DNA from: an uncultured Chitinophagales bacterium
Lineage (GTDB): Bacteria; Bacteroidota; Bacteroidia; Chitinophagales; JADIYW01
Reading direction: 5' to 3'
Length of the DNA: 64,000 nucleotides
Assembly: GCA_964490845.1 (NCBI GenBank)
Contig: CAZBED010000004.1
Coordinates: 587-64,586 of the forward strand
Under the pieces are notes generated by a model. The model did no database searches. It saw nothing but the letters and a program-made list of their open reading frames with translations, and was not told the DNA's origin. Position numbers and translations under genes: made by a program. Below, piece after piece: positions 56,679 through 64,000 of the stretch; position 1 is the stretch's first letter, and the number at the start of each line of letters is the position of its first letter.

Positions 56679-58163
56679 TTAATTTTTCTTAATCAGTTTT
56701 TGTACCACAGAAAACTCATCAGTGTAACATTTTACGGCATATAATCCGTCTGACAAAGACTGAATATTAATAAAGTGTTCAGCGGTATTCTTTTTCACCT
56801 GAGTTGTCAAAACAACTTTTCCGGCAACATCAACTATATCAATAGTAACCACTTTATTGAATGATTTATCAAAGTGAACAGACAACGTACCCGAAGCAGG
56901 ATTAGGGAAAATGGAAATACCCAAGTCTTTCATTCTCGGATTATAAACAGAGGAGATAACAGGCTCCGCTTCTCTTTTTACAATAATGCCTGCACGTCTG
57001 GTCAATAAGTTGTAGCGCATCATATTTACCTGCTGTTTTGTAAATAAATTATAGCACAAGTCTGTAGAATAATCCATGTAGTTCTCATACATATCAGGAT
57101 AATCTCTGCCTAAATAAGGTTTATTACACGAATTGACGGTGGAATCACAGGGATTCAGAGTCCCTCTTGGAATATTGGCAGCAAATGCTTCAGCTTCTTC
57201 AGGAGTGTCATCCATAAAATCATCTACTGTACACCCGTCCGTTACCGGCAATCCGGGCAGGTTTACTACGTTACCCCATTGATGCTGCAATCCAAAGTAG
57301 TGGCCAACTTCATGTACCGTAGTTCTGCCGGCAGCATAAAAATCCCTGAACCGTTGAGAGGTAGAATCCAGAGCATACCAGTTGTTTTGGCCAAAAAATC
57401 TGAAGTCTATAACGATCCCGTCATTCTTACCATGATCCAGCGCCAAACCGCCCCAGTTGATGGCATTGGATGGGGGGTAGGCAAATCCGCCTAAAGCACC
57501 GCAGGTGTCACACAAGGTCAGACAGGTACGGCATTTTCTGTTTGCGTAGTTCAAATCACAAACGTAGATATTCAGGTATTTGGATGCCGGCCATGGAGAC
57601 TTTCCGGTTGAGCCGGTTAATAAGAAGAAGTCTTCTTTCAGTGGTTCAATGCCTAATGCCGTCCATATTAAGGTACTGAGCGGATCCCATCCTGACAGGT
57701 TTCCTAAGTTTCCCTGAGTTCTGGTAATACCAGTTGTATTTTGCCCGCCGGGCGTTTTTTTAGCCAGTTCAAACTTTATCTTCGCTTTCCCCCTGAATGG
57801 GATAAAATATGGACGAAGATTTATACTGTCGGCATTGAGTAAGTTATAATCCCGGTTCAACGCTTCAATTTGTGATTGCACTACATTGTCCGGAATATTC
57901 TCGTACTTATTATTTCCTAAATAAACAACATGCACCACCACCTGAACGGTGTAAACAGAATCTGTGGTAACCAAAGATGTATCATAGGCTGCAATATCAT
58001 TAACAGCGCCGGATATTTGTTCCAAATAGGTGGTTCTGAGCGCGGCATTATTCAGGATGTCATGTTGAATAACATCGTCTAAAGCGCATTTTCTGGTTTC
58101 CTGAGCATGGGAGAGTAATATAAAGGATAGAAAGAGCCCAAACAGAGCAATAAAATTTTTCAT
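56679..58163 (-). CDS. M43 (pappalysin/cytophagalysin-like) zinc metalloprotease with T9SS C-terminal sorting domain
   Basis: Signal peptide; extended zinc motif HEVGHYFGLQH; C-terminal IFPNPASGTLSV...IVDVAGKVV...DGLYAVKC. Confidence 0.8.
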   Translation of the reverse strand: MKNFIALFGLFLSFILLSHAQETRKCALDDVIQHDILNNAALRTTYLEQISGAVNDIAAYDTSLVTTDSVYTVQVVVHVVYLGNNKYENIPDNVVQSQIEALNRDYNLLNADSINLRPYFIPFRGKAKIKFELAKKTPGGQNTTGITRTQGNLGNLSGWDPLSTLIWTALGIEPLKEDFFLLTGSTGKSPWPASKYLNIYVCDLNYANRKCRTCLTLCDTCGALGGFAYPPSNAINWGGLALDHGKNDGIVIDFRFFGQNNWYALDSTSQRFRDFYAAGRTTVHEVGHYFGLQHQWGNVVNLPGLPVTDGCTVDDFMDDTPEEAEAFAANIPRGTLNPCDSTVNSCNKPYLGRDYPDMYENYMDYSTDLCYNLFTKQQVNMMRYNLLTRRAGIIVKREAEPVISSVYNPRMKDLGISIFPNPASGTLSVHFDKSFNKVVTIDIVDVAGKVVLTTQVKKNTAEHFINIQSLSDGLYAVKCYTDEFSVVQKLIKKN

Positions 58164-58179
58164 ATCTGTTGCGTTTGCG

Positions 58180-58187
58180 CAAAGATA
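58180..58187 (-). promoter_or_regulatory. candidate -7 box TATCTTTG for M43 protease gene
   Basis: Exact consensus match on the minus strand, 16 nt before ATG 58163. Confidence 0.4.
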
Positions 58188-58200
58188 AAACTTTTACCTG

Positions 58201-58779
58201 TTAATTTAAGATAGGATCTTCAGGAAATGTGGATAACAATTTGTTCTTACCGCCCATTTTTACTAAAACTTCCTGCCACATATACTCGCTCATTTTGAAG
58301 ATTTCCGGGTAGTTTTTGGAAACAATCCAGCTTTCATCCTGCATCTCCTCATTTAGCTGTCCGGCGTCCCAGCCGGCATACCCTGCGAAGAAACGGATAT
58401 TATGCGGCATAATCTTTTTCTTCCGGATAAGCAGTTTGAGTTGTTCAAAATTGCCATTCCAGTATATATTATCCTTGATAGGGAAGGAATTCTCTATCAG
58501 GTCGCCGTAAGCGTGAATAAAATTCAGGCGATCCATTCCTACAGGGCCTCCGTAATGTACCATACCCTGAAAAGCGGGAAAATCCTGAATCATTTCGTTT
58601 ATGCGGAAAATGGAGGGGCGGTTCAGCACCAGGCCTATCGTTCCTTCCGTATTGTGCTCGCATACCAGCGTAACCGTTCTTTTAAAACTCGGGTCTTTCA
58701 TAAACGGCTCTGCTATCAGTAAATCTCCTTTTTCTACATTATAATCTTTTGCCATATCATTCTCGTTTTCTGTTACCAT
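58201..58779 (-). CDS. YqgE/AlgH family protein (UPF0301)
   Basis: Motifs LLIAEPFMKDP.F.RTV and FAGYAGWDAGQLNEE. The start may be the Met at 58755. Confidence 0.8.
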   Translation of the reverse strand: MVTENENDMAKDYNVEKGDLLIAEPFMKDPSFKRTVTLVCEHNTEGTIGLVLNRPSIFRINEMIQDFPAFQGMVHYGGPVGMDRLNFIHAYGDLIENSFPIKDNIYWNGNFEQLKLLIRKKKIMPHNIRFFAGYAGWDAGQLNEEMQDESWIVSKNYPEIFKMSEYMWQEVLVKMGGKNKLLSTFPEDPILN

Positions 58780-60044
58780 CTGTTCAGTATCGAATTAATA
58801 TGTTTTACCGCTATCAGCCTGTCATACCGTTCGCCAAAGGAATTGTAGTACAGCAGAATTGTGTAGTCATTTTCGGTATCCATATAATATCCTTCCGTTA
58901 TAAACTGATCAGTTATACCTTGTTTTTCATCCTTAAACAAATAACTATAGTTGTAGGTTCCTTGTTTCAGTAAAATATTGGCGGAATAGCTTTTATCCAG
59001 ATTGTCATACGTCATTTTAGAAGATTCATCACACCGCCAGTCGTTGAATGCTCCCACTACATAAAAATCACCATTGGATACTGTTCCGCCGAAATCAAAC
59101 GTAAAATGAACATTGGCATAGTCGGCAGCGGTATTGTAAGATGGATTATCCAGATTGTCGATATAGTACTGTCCGTTCAAATCTTTAACTATCTGGTATT
59201 TATTTTGCGGCTGTGGTTTTTCAAACAACAGGTATACATCATTTTCATCATCTCTTAAATCAAATGCTCGAATATTCTGTCCGCGAAAACGCAGTGAGCG
59301 CATGTCGAAAAAGCGAAATTCCCTGCCGGCAGTAGGAAAGGTGAGTACGCCGTTCAGATCAAAATTTAATTCATTCATGCCGATAAATTGCGGGCGAATG
59401 TCCAGTTTGGCATTATCCCATCGATAGTTTTGCAGCACGGCAGCTTTTATTTCAATATTGGGGTTATCAATTTTGAAACCCTTATAATTCACCCTAAAAA
59501 CTACTTCCTGGTACTTATCCCTGTTAATCAGGCTTCTCGGATAAACCACTCCGGCATCTATCATCACTTTTGATTCGGCTACCATGAAACGACGGGTAAA
59601 AATGGGATTGTCCTTATTAGAATCATAAACAACAAGGACATAATTGCCGGATTCATTAACGTTCATGTCATAATTTGGAAATTCCAGTTTATAATGTACA
59701 TACGGAATTTTTGCCCCGTTTGAGTAATCATAATCTGAAATATTCGCTTCGGTGAATCCATCCACATATTCCATTATATTCATAGTGGTAGGAGTCCAGT
59801 TACTGTTGCACTGAATGACGGTATAATAGTAATTCTTAGGCTTTCCGGATAAATCATCAAAATGCAGTTCCAGTTTTTCATTTTGGTCTTTGTAGAGGAT
59901 GGGCATGGCCATGTCAGCTCCAGCCGGAAATAACTGAACGGTTTTTATATAGGGAACAAATACCTGATTTTCGTACACAATAGCCTGGATTTTCATACTC
60001 CATAGCAGACACAACAGCAAAACGGCTTTTCGACTTTTCATCAA
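58773..60044 (-). CDS. secreted DUF5103-like protein (candidate T9SS plug-family protein)
   Basis: Signal peptide. N-terminal IKTVQLFP...LELHFDDL...YYYTVIQCNSNWTPT matches my recollection of the DUF5103 / T9SS_plug_1st family. Not verified. Confidence 0.45.
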   Translation of the reverse strand: MMKSRKAVLLLCLLWSMKIQAIVYENQVFVPYIKTVQLFPAGADMAMPILYKDQNEKLELHFDDLSGKPKNYYYTVIQCNSNWTPTTMNIMEYVDGFTEANISDYDYSNGAKIPYVHYKLEFPNYDMNVNESGNYVLVVYDSNKDNPIFTRRFMVAESKVMIDAGVVYPRSLINRDKYQEVVFRVNYKGFKIDNPNIEIKAAVLQNYRWDNAKLDIRPQFIGMNELNFDLNGVLTFPTAGREFRFFDMRSLRFRGQNIRAFDLRDDENDVYLLFEKPQPQNKYQIVKDLNGQYYIDNLDNPSYNTAADYANVHFTFDFGGTVSNGDFYVVGAFNDWRCDESSKMTYDNLDKSYSANILLKQGTYNYSYLFKDEKQGITDQFITEGYYMDTENDYTILLYYNSFGERYDRLIAVKHINSILNRW

Positions 60045-60171: not shown

Positions 60172-61128
60172 ATGGAATTCCGGAAAATTATTCAAATTTC
60201 TGCATCGCCGTTTCAAATCAATCATCAGGATGAATTAATGCTGATGGGTTCCTGCTTCACAGAAAATATAGGCGGAAAATTAACCTATTACGGATTCAAT
60301 AGCGTCAGTAATCCGTTTGGAATTATCTATAATCCAGTTTCTATTTTCCATAATCTGAGTTCTGCCATCCAAAGCAAGAAGTATATAGAAAGCGACTTGT
60401 TAATGCGGAATGACCTGTATATCTCATTGGATCATCATGGAAAATATGCTGATACCGATAAAGGACGCTTGCTGCATACCATCAATTCAGGAATGGAACA
60501 GGTTCATCAATGTTTCACAACTGCCAAGTATATTGTTTTTTCGCCGGGTACTTCGTTTGTTTATCAGCACAAAGCTTCCGGTAAGATTGCCGCCAATTGT
60601 CATAAACTTCCGAACTCCCATTTTGAAAAGAAACTGCTGACCATAGATGAAATTAAAGCTGCATTCAACACAATTAAACCACATTTGGCAGACAAGACAG
60701 TAATTTTCACTGTTTCACCGGTTCGACACTGGCGTGACGGCGCCGTGCAAAACCAAAGGAGCAAAAGCATACTAATAGAGAGTATACATCAGATAATAGC
60801 TGAAAATGACAATTGCTCTTATTTTCCATCATATGAAATCATGATGGATGAGTTGAGGGATTACAGGTTTTATGAAGAAGATATGCTCCACCCTAATAAA
60901 ACGGCGGTGAACTATATATGGGAACGTTTCTGTCAGACTTATTTTGATGAACTGACGATGGAAATACTGGACCAGATCCATAAACTCCAACTTATGATAC
61001 AGCACAGAATAAAACATTCTAATACAGCAGAACGGGAAGAGTTTGAAAATCAGAAACAGCTTCAGATAGCAGCTTTTAAAAAGAACTATCCGGCTATCAA
61101 TATTGATTTCACTCTTTCAGCAGAATAG
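60172..61128 (+). CDS. GSCFA family protein
   Basis: N-terminal MLMGSCFTENIG (GSCFA-type motif), about 318 aa, SGNH-like layout. Confidence 0.7.
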   Translation: MEFRKIIQISASPFQINHQDELMLMGSCFTENIGGKLTYYGFNSVSNPFGIIYNPVSIFHNLSSAIQSKKYIESDLLMRNDLYISLDHHGKYADTDKGRLLHTINSGMEQVHQCFTTAKYIVFSPGTSFVYQHKASGKIAANCHKLPNSHFEKKLLTIDEIKAAFNTIKPHLADKTVIFTVSPVRHWRDGAVQNQRSKSILIESIHQIIAENDNCSYFPSYEIMMDELRDYRFYEEDMLHPNKTAVNYIWERFCQTYFDELTMEILDQIHKLQLMIQHRIKHSNTAEREEFENQKQLQIAAFKKNYPAINIDFTLSAE

Positions 61129-62890
61129 GAAATTCCATATGCAACCTGAAATTCCAGGCATTGAGCAGGTTTATCTGAAATTTGCCGTTTAACAAGTCAA
61201 TAACTGATATGATGGATTTAATATTCTCATCCTGAGTGTTCATATTTCCTCCCGTATGTTGCACGCGAATCTGCGTTTCATTAATTGAAGGTATGACATA
61301 AATGCTGATTGTCAGTTGTTCCGGTTTATGTGCTGAAAAATACTGTATCAGGTATCTGATAATATCATAAATCAGATGTTGTGAAACAGGGGACAGGTTT
61401 TCAGGAATATTAAAATTATATTGCAGTGGAATATTATGCTGTATTTTATACTCTTCGAGCAGGTCTTTTAACGCCACCTGTACACCGAATTTTTTCAGGG
61501 TAGGGGGAAGAAGTGTATGCGAAAACAGCCTTATTTTATCACAAACCGCATCTATTTCCTTAGTGATTTTTCTGATCTCCAAGTCAGTATCATTCGTCTT
61601 TACGGCAGACATTTTCATTTTCACGGCAGACATCATAATGCCGATTCCGTCATGCAGTTCACGTCCTACACGGGCACGTTCATTTTGCTGGCCTTCTATT
61701 AAATAGAAATTATTGTGTGAATTGATTAAGCTCATTTCTTTTTTCAGGTGATCATTGCTTTTTATAATTTTCAACACACGATAGACGGAGGATATACAAA
61801 TTATAGTGGCTATAAAGAATGCGTTGCTGTAGGTATATATTTGCCCGATGTAGACACCCCGTACATCGCTGCCAAACTCCGGTTGTGGATAAAACAGGAA
61901 AAAATTAAACGACACGGAGTAAATCATACTGAATAGAACGATGGATTTGTCGTTGGTATTAAAATATACGATTATGAAAGTAACGATAACAGTAGTGATG
62001 CAGACAATTACAAAAATATTCTGAATAAAAATAAAGATTCTTTGCGCAGGTGTGCTGAATAATCCTGCAACGAGAGAAATCAGTACAAAAAACAAACCAA
62101 AATATATAAAATAACGCAACCTGTTATAAAATACTGGCAGATCCACCTTGTTTTTTATAAATCCTCTTAGAAATAAAATAGAGGTTATTAAATAAATAGA
62201 TAACATGATTTTCTTGAAAAAATAATCTACCGTCGGATAATCAGGCCATAAGAGTTCATATCCCAAATTGTTTTTAATAAATAGATAAAAGATTCCTGAA
62301 ATCAAATACAACAGATAATAATAGTATTTACGGACATTGAGCAGATAGGTCAGAATAAAACAAATAAAGGTAAACAAAATCAGAATACCGTAAAACACGC
62401 CACGGGTGAGTTCTAACGCCTGCATTCTATTGAGTTTGGCTTCCTTTTTCCATACCAGTATCATTGGCTTTATCAGATTGTGAATATCGTCTTTATGAAA
62501 ATTCAGAACGATAATGTTGAGTTGCTGCGGTTTTATTTCAAACTGGAAAACGATATTCCTGTCGTAATAAATACGTTGGCTTAGTTTTTTGGAAACAAAC
62601 ACATAGCGTTGCAATATACTGTCGTTTACTAACTGCATTAACGATATTTTCTCAATCTGCTGGATGGGAATTTCCAGCAATATTTCCTGTTTGGCCGGAT
62701 GGGTGTTCAGTAATTTCAGTTCATACTTTACCGAGTCCTGTGTTTCGGTGATGAATAAATACCTGGATGCCGGTTTGCAACGCATGGATTTATTGATGAT
62801 AAAGATACTGTCTTCTTCCGCAGATGAAGTCTGCGTGATAAACAGAAATATCAGCCCCCAAATAATTCTTATGTGAGTTAATCTGCTCAA
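61109..62890 (-). CDS. 7TMR-DISM-type membrane sensor kinase with intact HisKA_3 H-box but degenerate ATP-binding domain
   Basis: TTG start; signal peptide plus periplasmic domain; 7 TM helices; H-box NERARVGRELHDGIG. N, G1 and G2 boxes are absent from the aligned C-terminal domain. Confidence 0.8.
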   Translation of the reverse strand: MSRLTHIRIIWGLIFLFITQTSSAEEDSIFIINKSMRCKPASRYLFITETQDSVKYELKLLNTHPAKQEILLEIPIQQIEKISLMQLVNDSILQRYVFVSKKLSQRIYYDRNIVFQFEIKPQQLNIIVLNFHKDDIHNLIKPMILVWKKEAKLNRMQALELTRGVFYGILILFTFICFILTYLLNVRKYYYYLLYLISGIFYLFIKNNLGYELLWPDYPTVDYFFKKIMLSIYLITSILFLRGFIKNKVDLPVFYNRLRYFIYFGLFFVLISLVAGLFSTPAQRIFIFIQNIFVIVCITTVIVTFIIVYFNTNDKSIVLFSMIYSVSFNFFLFYPQPEFGSDVRGVYIGQIYTYSNAFFIATIICISSVYRVLKIIKSNDHLKKEMSLINSHNNFYLIEGQQNERARVGRELHDGIGIMMSAVKMKMSAVKTNDTDLEIRKITKEIDAVCDKIRLFSHTLLPPTLKKFGVQVALKDLLEEYKIQHNIPLQYNFNIPENLSPVSQHLIYDIIRYLIQYFSAHKPEQLTISIYVIPSINETQIRVQHTGGNMNTQDENIKSIISVIDLLNGKFQINLLNAWNFRLHMEFPILLKE

Positions 62891-63960
62891 CTAATATCTT
62901 TTAGTAATAAAATTAAATGTATGGTGGAACCAAACTTTTCATCGGACAAAATATAAAAATGGCCGTTTAAACTATTCATCCTGGATTCTATGTTCATCAT
63001 CCCGATTCCTGATTTTTTTGCTGCTAATCCGGAAAATCCTATTCCGTTATCACTTATTTTTATCTGCAATGATTTATTATCCCGTATAGCGGAAATATTA
63101 ACCAAATCAGCCTTTGAGTGTTTTATAATATTATTGGAAACTTCCTGAATAATGCGGTACAGGTTGATATTGGCAACGGCATTCAACTGCATATTGTCCG
63201 GTATCCTGCTAAAATCATAATTTACCTCAAGTGAGGAAAATAATTTATCGGTGGCGGTAAGAATCAATTCGGTTAATTTCATCTTCTGCATATCGGGCGC
63301 AACATAATTGCTGGTGATGTTTTTTATGTCCTCCAGTGTGGTATTAATTTCCTTCAATACCAAAGGAATAATTTTGGTATCCGGCTGCTGCTGGTTTAAT
63401 TGCAATAAATCTTTTTTTATCCTGTCGATATCTTTAGATATCCCGCTTTCGATAGATGACGTGATTTTCTCCCGTTCATCTTCCTGCCCAAGCACGAAAG
63501 TATTGATGTTTCTTTTTTGCAGAAAATCCAGCCTTTTTGCGGATATACTATTCTGCCGAATGAGGTTGTGGTAATTGACAGACATGAAAACGGTTACCAG
63601 AAACATCTCAAACATGGTGATATAGTAGCAGTTTTGCGGTATAAACAAATTACTCGAAAAAAGCTGAAACTTGTTGAAGCCATTGAGAAACGGAAGCATG
63701 GCATATTCATTATTTATAAATAACAACCAGTTAATAAAATGAAGGATACTTCCGGCGGTTACCCAGATAATTTCTCTTCTTCTTGCGATGATATATGTAT
63801 TGACACCAAGTATAATTACCATTATGCCGTAAAAGATAAAGACGGCGTATATGAATCGCTGATTCCAGTTGGATTGTATGTTGTCATAGCTTTGGTTGTA
63901 AAACTGAATGAGAAAGAAAATACCAAATAACACCAATCCGGCAATGATAAACTTCAGCAT
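62887..63960 (-). CDS. membrane sensor-kinase paralog with intact HATPase_c but no phospho-acceptor His
   Basis: Multi-TM N-terminus. DHp-like EDEREKITSSIESGISKD has Glu at the His position. N box IIQEVSNNIIKHS, G1 ISDNGIGF and G2 SGIGMMNIESR are present. The frame stays open upstream to the window edge, so the start is provisional. Confidence 0.75.
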   Translation of the reverse strand: MLKFIIAGLVLFGIFFLIQFYNQSYDNIQSNWNQRFIYAVFIFYGIMVIILGVNTYIIARRREIIWVTAGSILHFINWLLFINNEYAMLPFLNGFNKFQLFSSNLFIPQNCYYITMFEMFLVTVFMSVNYHNLIRQNSISAKRLDFLQKRNINTFVLGQEDEREKITSSIESGISKDIDRIKKDLLQLNQQQPDTKIIPLVLKEINTTLEDIKNITSNYVAPDMQKMKLTELILTATDKLFSSLEVNYDFSRIPDNMQLNAVANINLYRIIQEVSNNIIKHSKADLVNISAIRDNKSLQIKISDNGIGFSGLAAKKSGIGMMNIESRMNSLNGHFYILSDEKFGSTIHLILLLKDIS

Positions 63961-64000
63961 CCATCCGGAAAAATTATTTTTAAACTGTACAGCAAAAAAT

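Follow-up and report, generated by a model that had tools for sequence, protein, structure and literature searches.

Adjacent 7TMR-DISM receptor paralogues with complementary, conserved loss of the phospho-acceptor histidine and the ATP-binding site in uncultured Chitinophagales and related Bacteroidota

Background

Can two neighbouring receptor genes, neither of which encodes a complete histidine kinase, encode one kinase between them? This question is raised by genes A and B of an uncultured Chitinophagales bacterium, which lie on the minus strand near the right end of a 64,000-nucleotide stretch of contig CAZBED010000004.1 (positions 587 to 64,586; this whole stretch is referred to as the window). 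Neither A nor B alone is a complete canonical HisKA_3 kinase; A lacks the acceptor histidine and B lacks the ATP site. This complementary loss is real, conserved and under selection. Judged from their sequences, A and B are probably two halves of one sensor histidine kinase, working as a hetero-oligomer in which A phosphorylates His413 of B in trans.

The usual view of histidine kinases is of homodimers with complete subunits; cis and trans phosphorylation and asymmetry have mostly been studied with engineered mutant heterodimers. In the pair described here, the difference would be natural and fixed by evolution.

Structure of the gene pair

The pair is arranged as follows.

61109-62890, minus strand: gene B, 593 residues with a TTG start; 7TMR-DISM receptor with an intact HisKA_3 dimerisation and histidine phosphotransfer (DHp) domain and a pseudo-catalytic domain
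62887-64000, minus strand: gene A, 3' part only, residues 237-606 of a 606-residue 7TMR-DISM receptor; the 5' part is outside the window
62887-62890, minus strand: TTGA stop/start overlap of A and B; A stop TGA at 62887-62889, B start TTG at 62888-62890

The coordinates, the TTGA overlap and the 593-residue B with its TTG start were first given in a sequence-only reading of the window, and the open reading frames (ORFs) of the window confirm them. The same reading gave A a length of 357 residues, which is wrong. From 63960 to the end of the window (base 64000) the frame contains no stop. The public contig L004 is 100% identical to window positions 61109-63999, and its A is 606 residues long; by comparison with this contig, the ATG at 63960 is an internal methionine of A and not its start. 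Close homologues of A are all 600-606 residues long and contain 7TMR-DISMED2 (PF07696), 7TMR-DISM_7TM (PF07695) and HATPase_c (PF02518), never PF07730. The length of A is corrected to 606 residues because the frame is open to the window end, the homologues are of this size and L004 is identical. On its predicted domains, A matches B in size and build and is a full receptor, with periplasmic and seven-helix membrane domains of its own.

The C-terminal halves of A and B align, as had been proposed (BLASTP, 22% identity, E 4e-8), with QQNERARVGRELHDGIG of B opposite QEDEREKITSSIESGIS of A.

Gene B: intact H-box and degenerate ATP site

All parts of B lie on the minus strand.

62447-62890, minus strand: signal peptide/N-terminal helix (residues 1-24) and periplasmic beta-sandwich (residues 25-148, DISMED2-like); helix 2-22 and strands 29-148 in the AlphaFold2 (AF2) model
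61766-62446, minus strand: seven-helix membrane domain (residues 149-375); PF07695, E 3.8e-11, 43.7 bits (cut-off 29)
61436-61765, minus strand: DHp domain (HisKA_3); PF07730, E 4.8e-8
61640-61693, minus strand: H-box GQQNERARVGRELHDGIG; predicted phospho-acceptor His413 at 61652-61654
61112-61435, minus strand: pseudo-catalytic domain (residues 486-593); degenerate N box at 61319-61363, degenerate G1 box at 61241-61264, deleted G2/lid at 61196-61228

The signal peptide is present only with the overlapping TTG as start. The match of B to PF07696 is weak (16 bits, cut-off 22, E 0.012); the AF2 model shows a beta-sandwich in this region. The model also has seven helices at residues 149-372, and the helix at 348-429 is unbroken, so that the last membrane helix runs into DHp helix 1.

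The H-box of canonical HisKA_3 kinases (DesK/NarX/LiaS type) reads E-x-x-R-x-R-[IL]-x-x-[ED]-L-H-D, and their ATP site has an N-box asparagine, a G1 DxGxG and a G2 GxG lid. In 86 non-redundant C-termini of family B, the H-box residues E-L-H-D-G-I-G are kept in 85-86 sequences and the acceptor histidine in all 86. The ATP site is lost just as consistently: no HATPase_c match is found in B with Pfam, even at E<=1, the N-box asparagine is replaced by tyrosine in 84/86, the G1 aspartate by histidine, tyrosine or cysteine, and the G2 segment is deleted in 86/86. A search of the alignment for functional N, G1 or G2 residues in B, whose presence would contradict the proposed loss, found none in any of the 86. 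The phosphatase motif of HisKA_3 proteins is DxxxQ (PMC8199190); its glutamine is absent from B in 86/86 (isoleucine in 82, valine in 4), which argues against B as a dedicated phosphatase.

Gene A: pseudo-DHp domain and intact ATP site

The following parts of A fall within the window.

63268-63552, minus strand: pseudo-DHp helical hairpin, full-length residues about 386-480; helical in the AF2 model
63436-63489, minus strand: pseudo-H-box GQEDEREKITSSIESGIS; Glu420 (63448-63450) at the phospho-acceptor histidine position
62890-63267, minus strand: catalytic ATP-binding (CA) domain; N box at 63109-63153, G1 at 63034-63057 and G2 at 62980-63012, all intact

The visible part of A matches HATPase_c (Pfam, E 4.2e-8) and has no HisKA_3 match, even at E<=1. 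Full-length A, taken from L004, scores 31.6 bits with PF07696 (cut-off 22) and 26.5 bits with PF07695, slightly below the cut-off of 29.

When the family-A profile is aligned to DesK, the consensus glutamate of A falls on DesK His188. Among 74 non-redundant C-termini of family A, the acceptor-histidine column contains Glu (28), Gly (19), Asn (9), Asp (8), Gln (3) and Ser (2), with one each of Thr, Tyr, Ala, Arg and His; a conserved histidine at this position, which would have spoken against the loss, is not found. The tyrosine belongs to L032, the deepest lineage of A. The only family-A member with histidine is the metagenome protein P0041 (KEIHADIL), in which the next residue is alanine and not aspartate; this could be a chance reversion at a freely varying site, or a rare self-sufficient variant.

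The ATP site of A is as strictly kept as the H-box of B. No variation is seen among the 74 sequences in the N box (E, N, N, K, H, A), in G2 (G-x-G..N..R) or in the aspartate and first glycine of G1; the second G1 glycine is present in 72/74. The motif differences read earlier from the single locus (N, G1 and G2 differing between the proteins, histidine and aspartate replaced in A) therefore hold in the family alignment.

DHp helix 1 of A combines a constant core with a variable face. Its core is hydrophobic, with isoleucine at His-1 in 69/74, Ile, Leu or Val at His+3 in 74/74 and isoleucine at His+7 in 74/74. The former catalytic face (positions 0, +1, +2, +4 and +5) is freely variable across the 74 sequences. 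This is expected if the DHp domain of A is kept solely for bundle formation; the substitution pattern fits a helix retained for packing and no longer for catalysis or regulator docking.

The residues N-Y-H-N-L-I-R-Q-N (window 63550-63576) stand at the exit of the last membrane helix of A, and their histidine occurs in 65/74. It was considered as an alternative phospho-acceptor. It lies 40 alignment columns upstream of the H-box column and is lysine or tyrosine in the deepest lineages; a role as obligatory site is rejected, and this histidine is probably structural.

Pairing, coupled translation and distribution

A survey seeded with family B, with one genome per species, gives 27 species-level genomes in which B identity ranges from 29 to 92%. 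All 27 belong to uncultured Chitinophagales, Sphingobacteriales or Saprospirales. In 27/27, B is directly preceded by an A orthologue wherever the contig reaches that far, and loci found from the A side have the same arrangement. The pair also occurs in at least five deeper lineages, and counting all divergent lineages beyond the 27 species, A and B are adjacent in six. The sequence-only reading had named orthologous pairs with a different pattern as evidence for decay of one copy; every orthologous pair examined, in the 27 species genomes and in the deeper lineages, has the complementary pattern.

The stop of A and the start of B overlap as NTGA in 26/27 species, in the form TTGA, ATGA or CTGA. 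Conservation of this overlap supports termination-reinitiation coupling and roughly equal synthesis of A and B. The CTGA form is found in L007, L008, L018, L025 and L088. In these loci the B frame is open from CTG and gives a full signal peptide, while the next in-frame TTG or ATG would truncate it; on this reading of the frames, the CTGA species probably start B at the CTG codon by reinitiation.

A profile search of 1.84 billion representative proteins for B-like 7TMR-DISM proteins finds additional proteins in which the H-box is intact and the ATP site degenerate; they lie between the core family and canonical kinases. An A-like partner accompanies each of these divergent B-like proteins, the two genes overlapping by ATGA, GTGA or TTGA. 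Five of the divergent pairs were aligned; their A-like partners have aspartate or glutamate at the histidine column and intact N, G1 and G2 boxes. In L091/L092 (L091:239-3972) B precedes A, and a four-base GTGA overlap is retained; either the order was inverted or the same complementary design arose independently. Identity falls to about 17-35% without loss of the complementary pattern, which holds for either gene order.

In one control sample of ordinary HisKA_3 kinases, 55 ORFs have both domains and none has DHp alone. A second sample comes from a metagenome scan seeded with divergent B-like proteins, and consists mostly of ordinary HisKA_3 kinases with two core pairs added; among the matches listed, 87 ORFs have both domains and one complete ORF (L131) has DHp alone. 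Other His-less kinases were also sought among the weaker matches. P0066, P0069, P0071 and P0074 were candidates as they have no precomputed HisKA_3 call, yet all have ELHD and were rejected.

Constraint and fold

Relative to the closest orthologue, the number of nonsynonymous substitutions per site (dN) is 0.050 for the pseudo-DHp domain of A, 0.044 for its catalytic domain, 0.050 for the DHp domain of B and 0.030 for its pseudo-catalytic domain. The ratio to synonymous substitutions (dN/dS) is about 0.02-0.04, as an order of magnitude only, since dS (1.2-2.6) has reached saturation already at the closest orthologues. Constraint is no weaker on the degenerate domains than on the intact ones, which excludes simple decay.

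PDB sequence searches with the cytoplasmic region of B alone and with the family-B profile gave no useful match; a fold search was used instead. The AF2 model of B has a mean predicted local distance difference test score (pLDDT) of 78, with 83-91 in the pseudo-catalytic domain; the A fragment has a pLDDT of 75. With Foldseek, both models match the cytoplasmic region of DesK (DesKC), B with E 2e-7 and A with E 3e-10. The pseudo-catalytic domain of B matches the VraS CA domain with a target-normalised TM-score of 0.74 (root-mean-square deviation 2.8 A) and the DesK ATP-binding domain with 0.68; for the catalytic domain of A the target-normalised TM-scores are 0.81 (VraS) and 0.80 (DesK ATP-binding domain). 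The models indicate that A and B both retain a DesK-like DHp and CA fold.

Each protein is a pseudo-histidine-kinase, in that its fold is kept under purifying selection despite the loss of catalytic residues. As a pair they also correspond, at the level of motifs, to a split kinase, with the histidine acceptor and the ATP site on separate polypeptides; the split is not by domain absence.

A and B score about 54-101 bits against each other and about 85-102 bits against canonical 7TMR-DISM kinases, and are not closer to each other than to the latter. An origin by duplication and subfunctionalisation, as suggested from the alignment of the two proteins, is plausible.

Proposed mechanism

In the proposed mechanism, A and B would be made from one transcript by stop/start-coupled translation and would form a hetero-oligomer. 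The simplest form would be a heterodimer, with a four-helix bundle built from the pseudo-DHp domain of A and the DHp domain of B. The catalytic domain of A would then phosphorylate His413 of B in trans, and phosphorylated B would in turn donate to a response regulator of the NarL/LuxR type, which in this genome is not linked to the pair and in two distant lineages is its neighbour. Because A and B each carry their own fast-evolving periplasmic domain, the two sensors together would determine the output. Co-occurrence and coupled translation lend indirect support to a physical complex of the two proteins.

Several points weigh against this account. There is no response regulator within 10 kb of the pair in the core-clade loci examined. 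A 1:1 heterodimer requires trans autophosphorylation, and an A2-B2 assembly is possible too. Saturation of dS leaves the dN/dS values approximate. All members of the pair come from uncultured metagenome-assembled genomes.

The geometry of the complex could also differ. A and B may each form a homodimer, with A2 phosphorylating B2 between dimers in a higher-order membrane complex and no mixed four-helix bundle. CheA4 acts on CheA3 in this way, and the hydrophobic heptad cores retained in A and B are compatible with homodimers. This arrangement is unlikely: a CA domain that is tethered to one bundle has poor access to a histidine on another, and strict 1:1 coupled translation fits a stoichiometric heterodimer at least equally well. 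The evidence gathered here does not separate the homodimer geometry from the mixed-bundle geometry.

Alternatively, there may be no phosphotransfer from A to B. B would then be a phosphotransfer or phosphatase scaffold for a regulator phosphorylated by another kinase, and A an ATP-binding modulator like DivL or RetS, which are known pseudo-histidine-kinases that signal by binding. The absence of a linked response regulator in the core clade is in keeping with this, as is the acceptor column of A, where Glu and Asp are frequent; the DesK H188E variant (PDB 3GIE), found in the same profile alignment, has Glu at this position. However, the invariant N, G1 and G2 boxes of A argue for real ATP turnover and the invariant H-box of B for real histidine phosphorylation. 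The loss of the DxxxQ glutamine throughout family B does not suit a phosphatase scaffold, and a third kinase leaves the obligatory adjacency and coupled translation unexplained. This arrangement, also drawn from analogy, is doubtful, more so than paired homodimers.

Response regulators and conserved neighbours

The statement that no response regulator lies in the window is borne out; no NarL- or CheY-like ORF is detected in the 64 kb. The sequence-only reading proposed a search for the cognate NarL/LytTR regulator past the right window edge. None lies just past it: in L004, a YjbR gene and AceK are found there instead. In L091 and L093, a Response_reg+GerE regulator (NarL/LuxR-type) lies directly downstream of the pair on the opposite strand. 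NarL/LuxR-type regulators are the class expected for HisKA_3 kinases.

L004:7723-8082, past the right window edge: YjbR/MmcQ (PF04237) gene, 119 residues; overlaps the A start by four bases
L004:5919-7640, minus strand: AceK (isocitrate dehydrogenase kinase/phosphatase); divergent from the operon

The YjbR gene (115-162 residues) heads the operon in L005-L023, L086-L090, L094 and L176. Its end meets or overlaps the A start in most core-clade species, which suggests a unit YjbR-A-B; the same unit is found in L089, L090, L094 and L176. YjbR is not present in L024, L029, L031 or L032, nor in L091 and L093, the lineages with a linked regulator.

AceK is separated from the operon by 23-86 bp. It adjoins the pair in every core locus that reaches far enough, and also in L090, L094 and L176. 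In the deep branches L029, L031 and L032, AceK is the only one of the L004 neighbours left; in L010 and L011, only AceK and YjbR are left. Retention of AceK where the other L004 neighbours are gone suggests a functional link and not mere inherited gene order. The association of YjbR and AceK with the pair is conserved.

A ferritin-like gene (PF00210) is inserted between YjbR and A in three loci (L089:3460-3999, L090:3296-3817 and L094:3545-4063), with a Rubrerythrin match as well in L090. This insertion hints at a connection to iron or oxidative stress.

YjbR, a translationally coupled 'double-wing' DNA-binding protein that is sometimes accompanied by the ferritin-like protein, and AceK are the only constant partners of the pair in most lineages. 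On this basis, A and B could be an obligatorily asymmetric two-input kinase whose ancestral output is not a receiver-domain regulator; the signal would act through YjbR or on aceK expression, and so set isocitrate dehydrogenase flux. This output is very unlikely. If it did apply, it would define a histidine kinase pathway without a response regulator, linked to central carbon, iron or redox metabolism.

The same neighbours bear on a further possibility, that the ATP site of A acts on a non-histidine substrate, like the GHKL-fold serine kinases SpoIIAB/RsbW or PDK/BCKDK. Candidate substrates would be YjbR, a serine or threonine of B, or an AceK-linked metabolic target. A has a weak match to HATPase_c_2, the anti-sigma kinase type (E 0.005, below the curated cut-off), and the conserved YjbR and AceK genes are at hand. 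Against this, the closest sequence and fold relatives of A are the HisKA_3 kinases DesK and VraS, NarL-type regulators stand beside the pair in two lineages, and the invariant H-box of B would be left unexplained. Such a substrate is highly improbable.

One working kinase with a decaying duplicate, two decaying genes, or an assembly or frameshift artefact can be set aside: A and B do each miss an essential motif, but neither ORF is interrupted in any genome examined, all domains have a dN of 0.03-0.05, the pattern is deep and found in both gene orders, and independent assemblies give identical sequence.

Other features of the locus can be described separately. In an alignment of the aceK-yjbR intergenic region (L004:7641-7722 and equivalents), two blocks are conserved. 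The first, TTATTGT(A/G)(T/G)TATTTTTA, lies beside the aceK start. The second is ACAAATATAAA; its complement, TATATTTG, resembles the Bacteroidota -7 promoter element and points toward aceK. A promoter and terminator scan of window positions 60900-64000 finds 17 sites where 14.1 +/- 3.9 are expected, which is background; the scan omits Bacteroidota promoters and is uninformative on an internal promoter. Downstream of the pair, a GSCFA-family gene (60172-61128, plus strand) is convergent with B, with a 20-base tail-to-tail overlap at 61109-61128; the same is found in L004 and L005. Further downstream (window 56679-60044), most core-clade genomes share a syntenic set of genes, which encode a T9SS_plug_1st protein, a DUF179 protein and an M43 peptidase with a Por secretion tail.

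Significance

What sets this pair apart from described systems is the combination of two full-length receptor paralogues, both folds kept, reciprocal deficiencies, and fixation across many lineages. If A and B do act as halves of one kinase, each complex would have one histidine and one ATP site, each on a different periplasmic sensor. This would provide a clean system for the study of trans-phosphorylation and asymmetric signalling, and a built-in two-input (coincidence) receptor design.

There is also a warning for annotation. Both genes are labelled 'histidine kinase' or 'hypothetical', and a domain-based census would count one orphan DHp protein and one His-less ATPase. In addition, the conserved linkage with YjbR and AceK suggests that uncultured Chitinophagales and related Bacteroidota have a regulatory connection that is so far unstudied.

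Comparison with known systems

Split kinases as such are not new. In Rhodobacter sphaeroides, neither CheA3 nor CheA4 autophosphorylates alone while the mixture does, and 3.66% of HisKA proteins in SMART have no HATPase domain (PMC3591291). As in A and B, the histidine-bearing and ATP-binding functions of CheA3 and CheA4 are on two polypeptides. However, these are soluble proteins of the CheA class from which whole domains are absent (P1 versus P3/P4), and the histidine is on an Hpt-type domain; A and B span the membrane as full-length receptors, retain both folds and differ only in which motifs have degenerated. A natural complementary kinase pair of this kind was not found described in the open-access papers searched, which is not proof of absence.

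In M. tuberculosis, HK1 and HK2 of the HK1/HK2-TcrA system are encoded by adjacent genes and are listed as a joint sensor kinase for one regulator (PMC9321153). Unlike A and B, they are small domain-only proteins, without the partner's degenerate domain and without 7TMR-DISM sensors. HK1 is said, in work by Shrivastava et al. from 2007, to bind ATP and phosphorylate HK2.

RetS of Pseudomonas aeruginosa is a 7TMR-DISM kinase without ATP binding; it forms a heterodimeric four-helix bundle with GacS through DHp-DHp contacts and is inhibitory, and GacS autophosphorylates in trans (PMC8498467). B resembles RetS in being a 7TMR-DISM receptor with a catalytic domain that lacks ATP binding, and Foldseek lists the RetS kinase region among the matches of B. 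In contrast to A and B, RetS inhibits a fully competent partner, both proteins keep the histidine, the genes are unlinked and the proteins are HisKA-type hybrid kinases. A and B each lack what the other has, and only their heteromer would be active.

DivL and RcsD are, like A, conserved proteins with a kinase fold and no acceptor histidine that act with a real kinase. DivL has tyrosine at the histidine position, as does A in lineage L032. Unlike A, they act by binding or through a separate Hpt domain, and their partners are catalytically complete.

DesK is the best profile and fold match of both A and B. All three lack a HAMP domain, and their last membrane helix leads straight into helix 1 of the DHp domain. 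DesK differs in being a complete homodimeric kinase/phosphatase with His188, a DxxxQ motif and a full ATP site.

The proposed mechanism also has an experimental parallel. With EnvZ and NtrB, engineered mixed dimers of His-minus and ATP-site-minus subunits regain trans phosphorylation. Those mutants are engineered from one protein and have identical sensor domains, unlike A and B; by analogy, the pair looks like a natural, fixed version of this complementation experiment.

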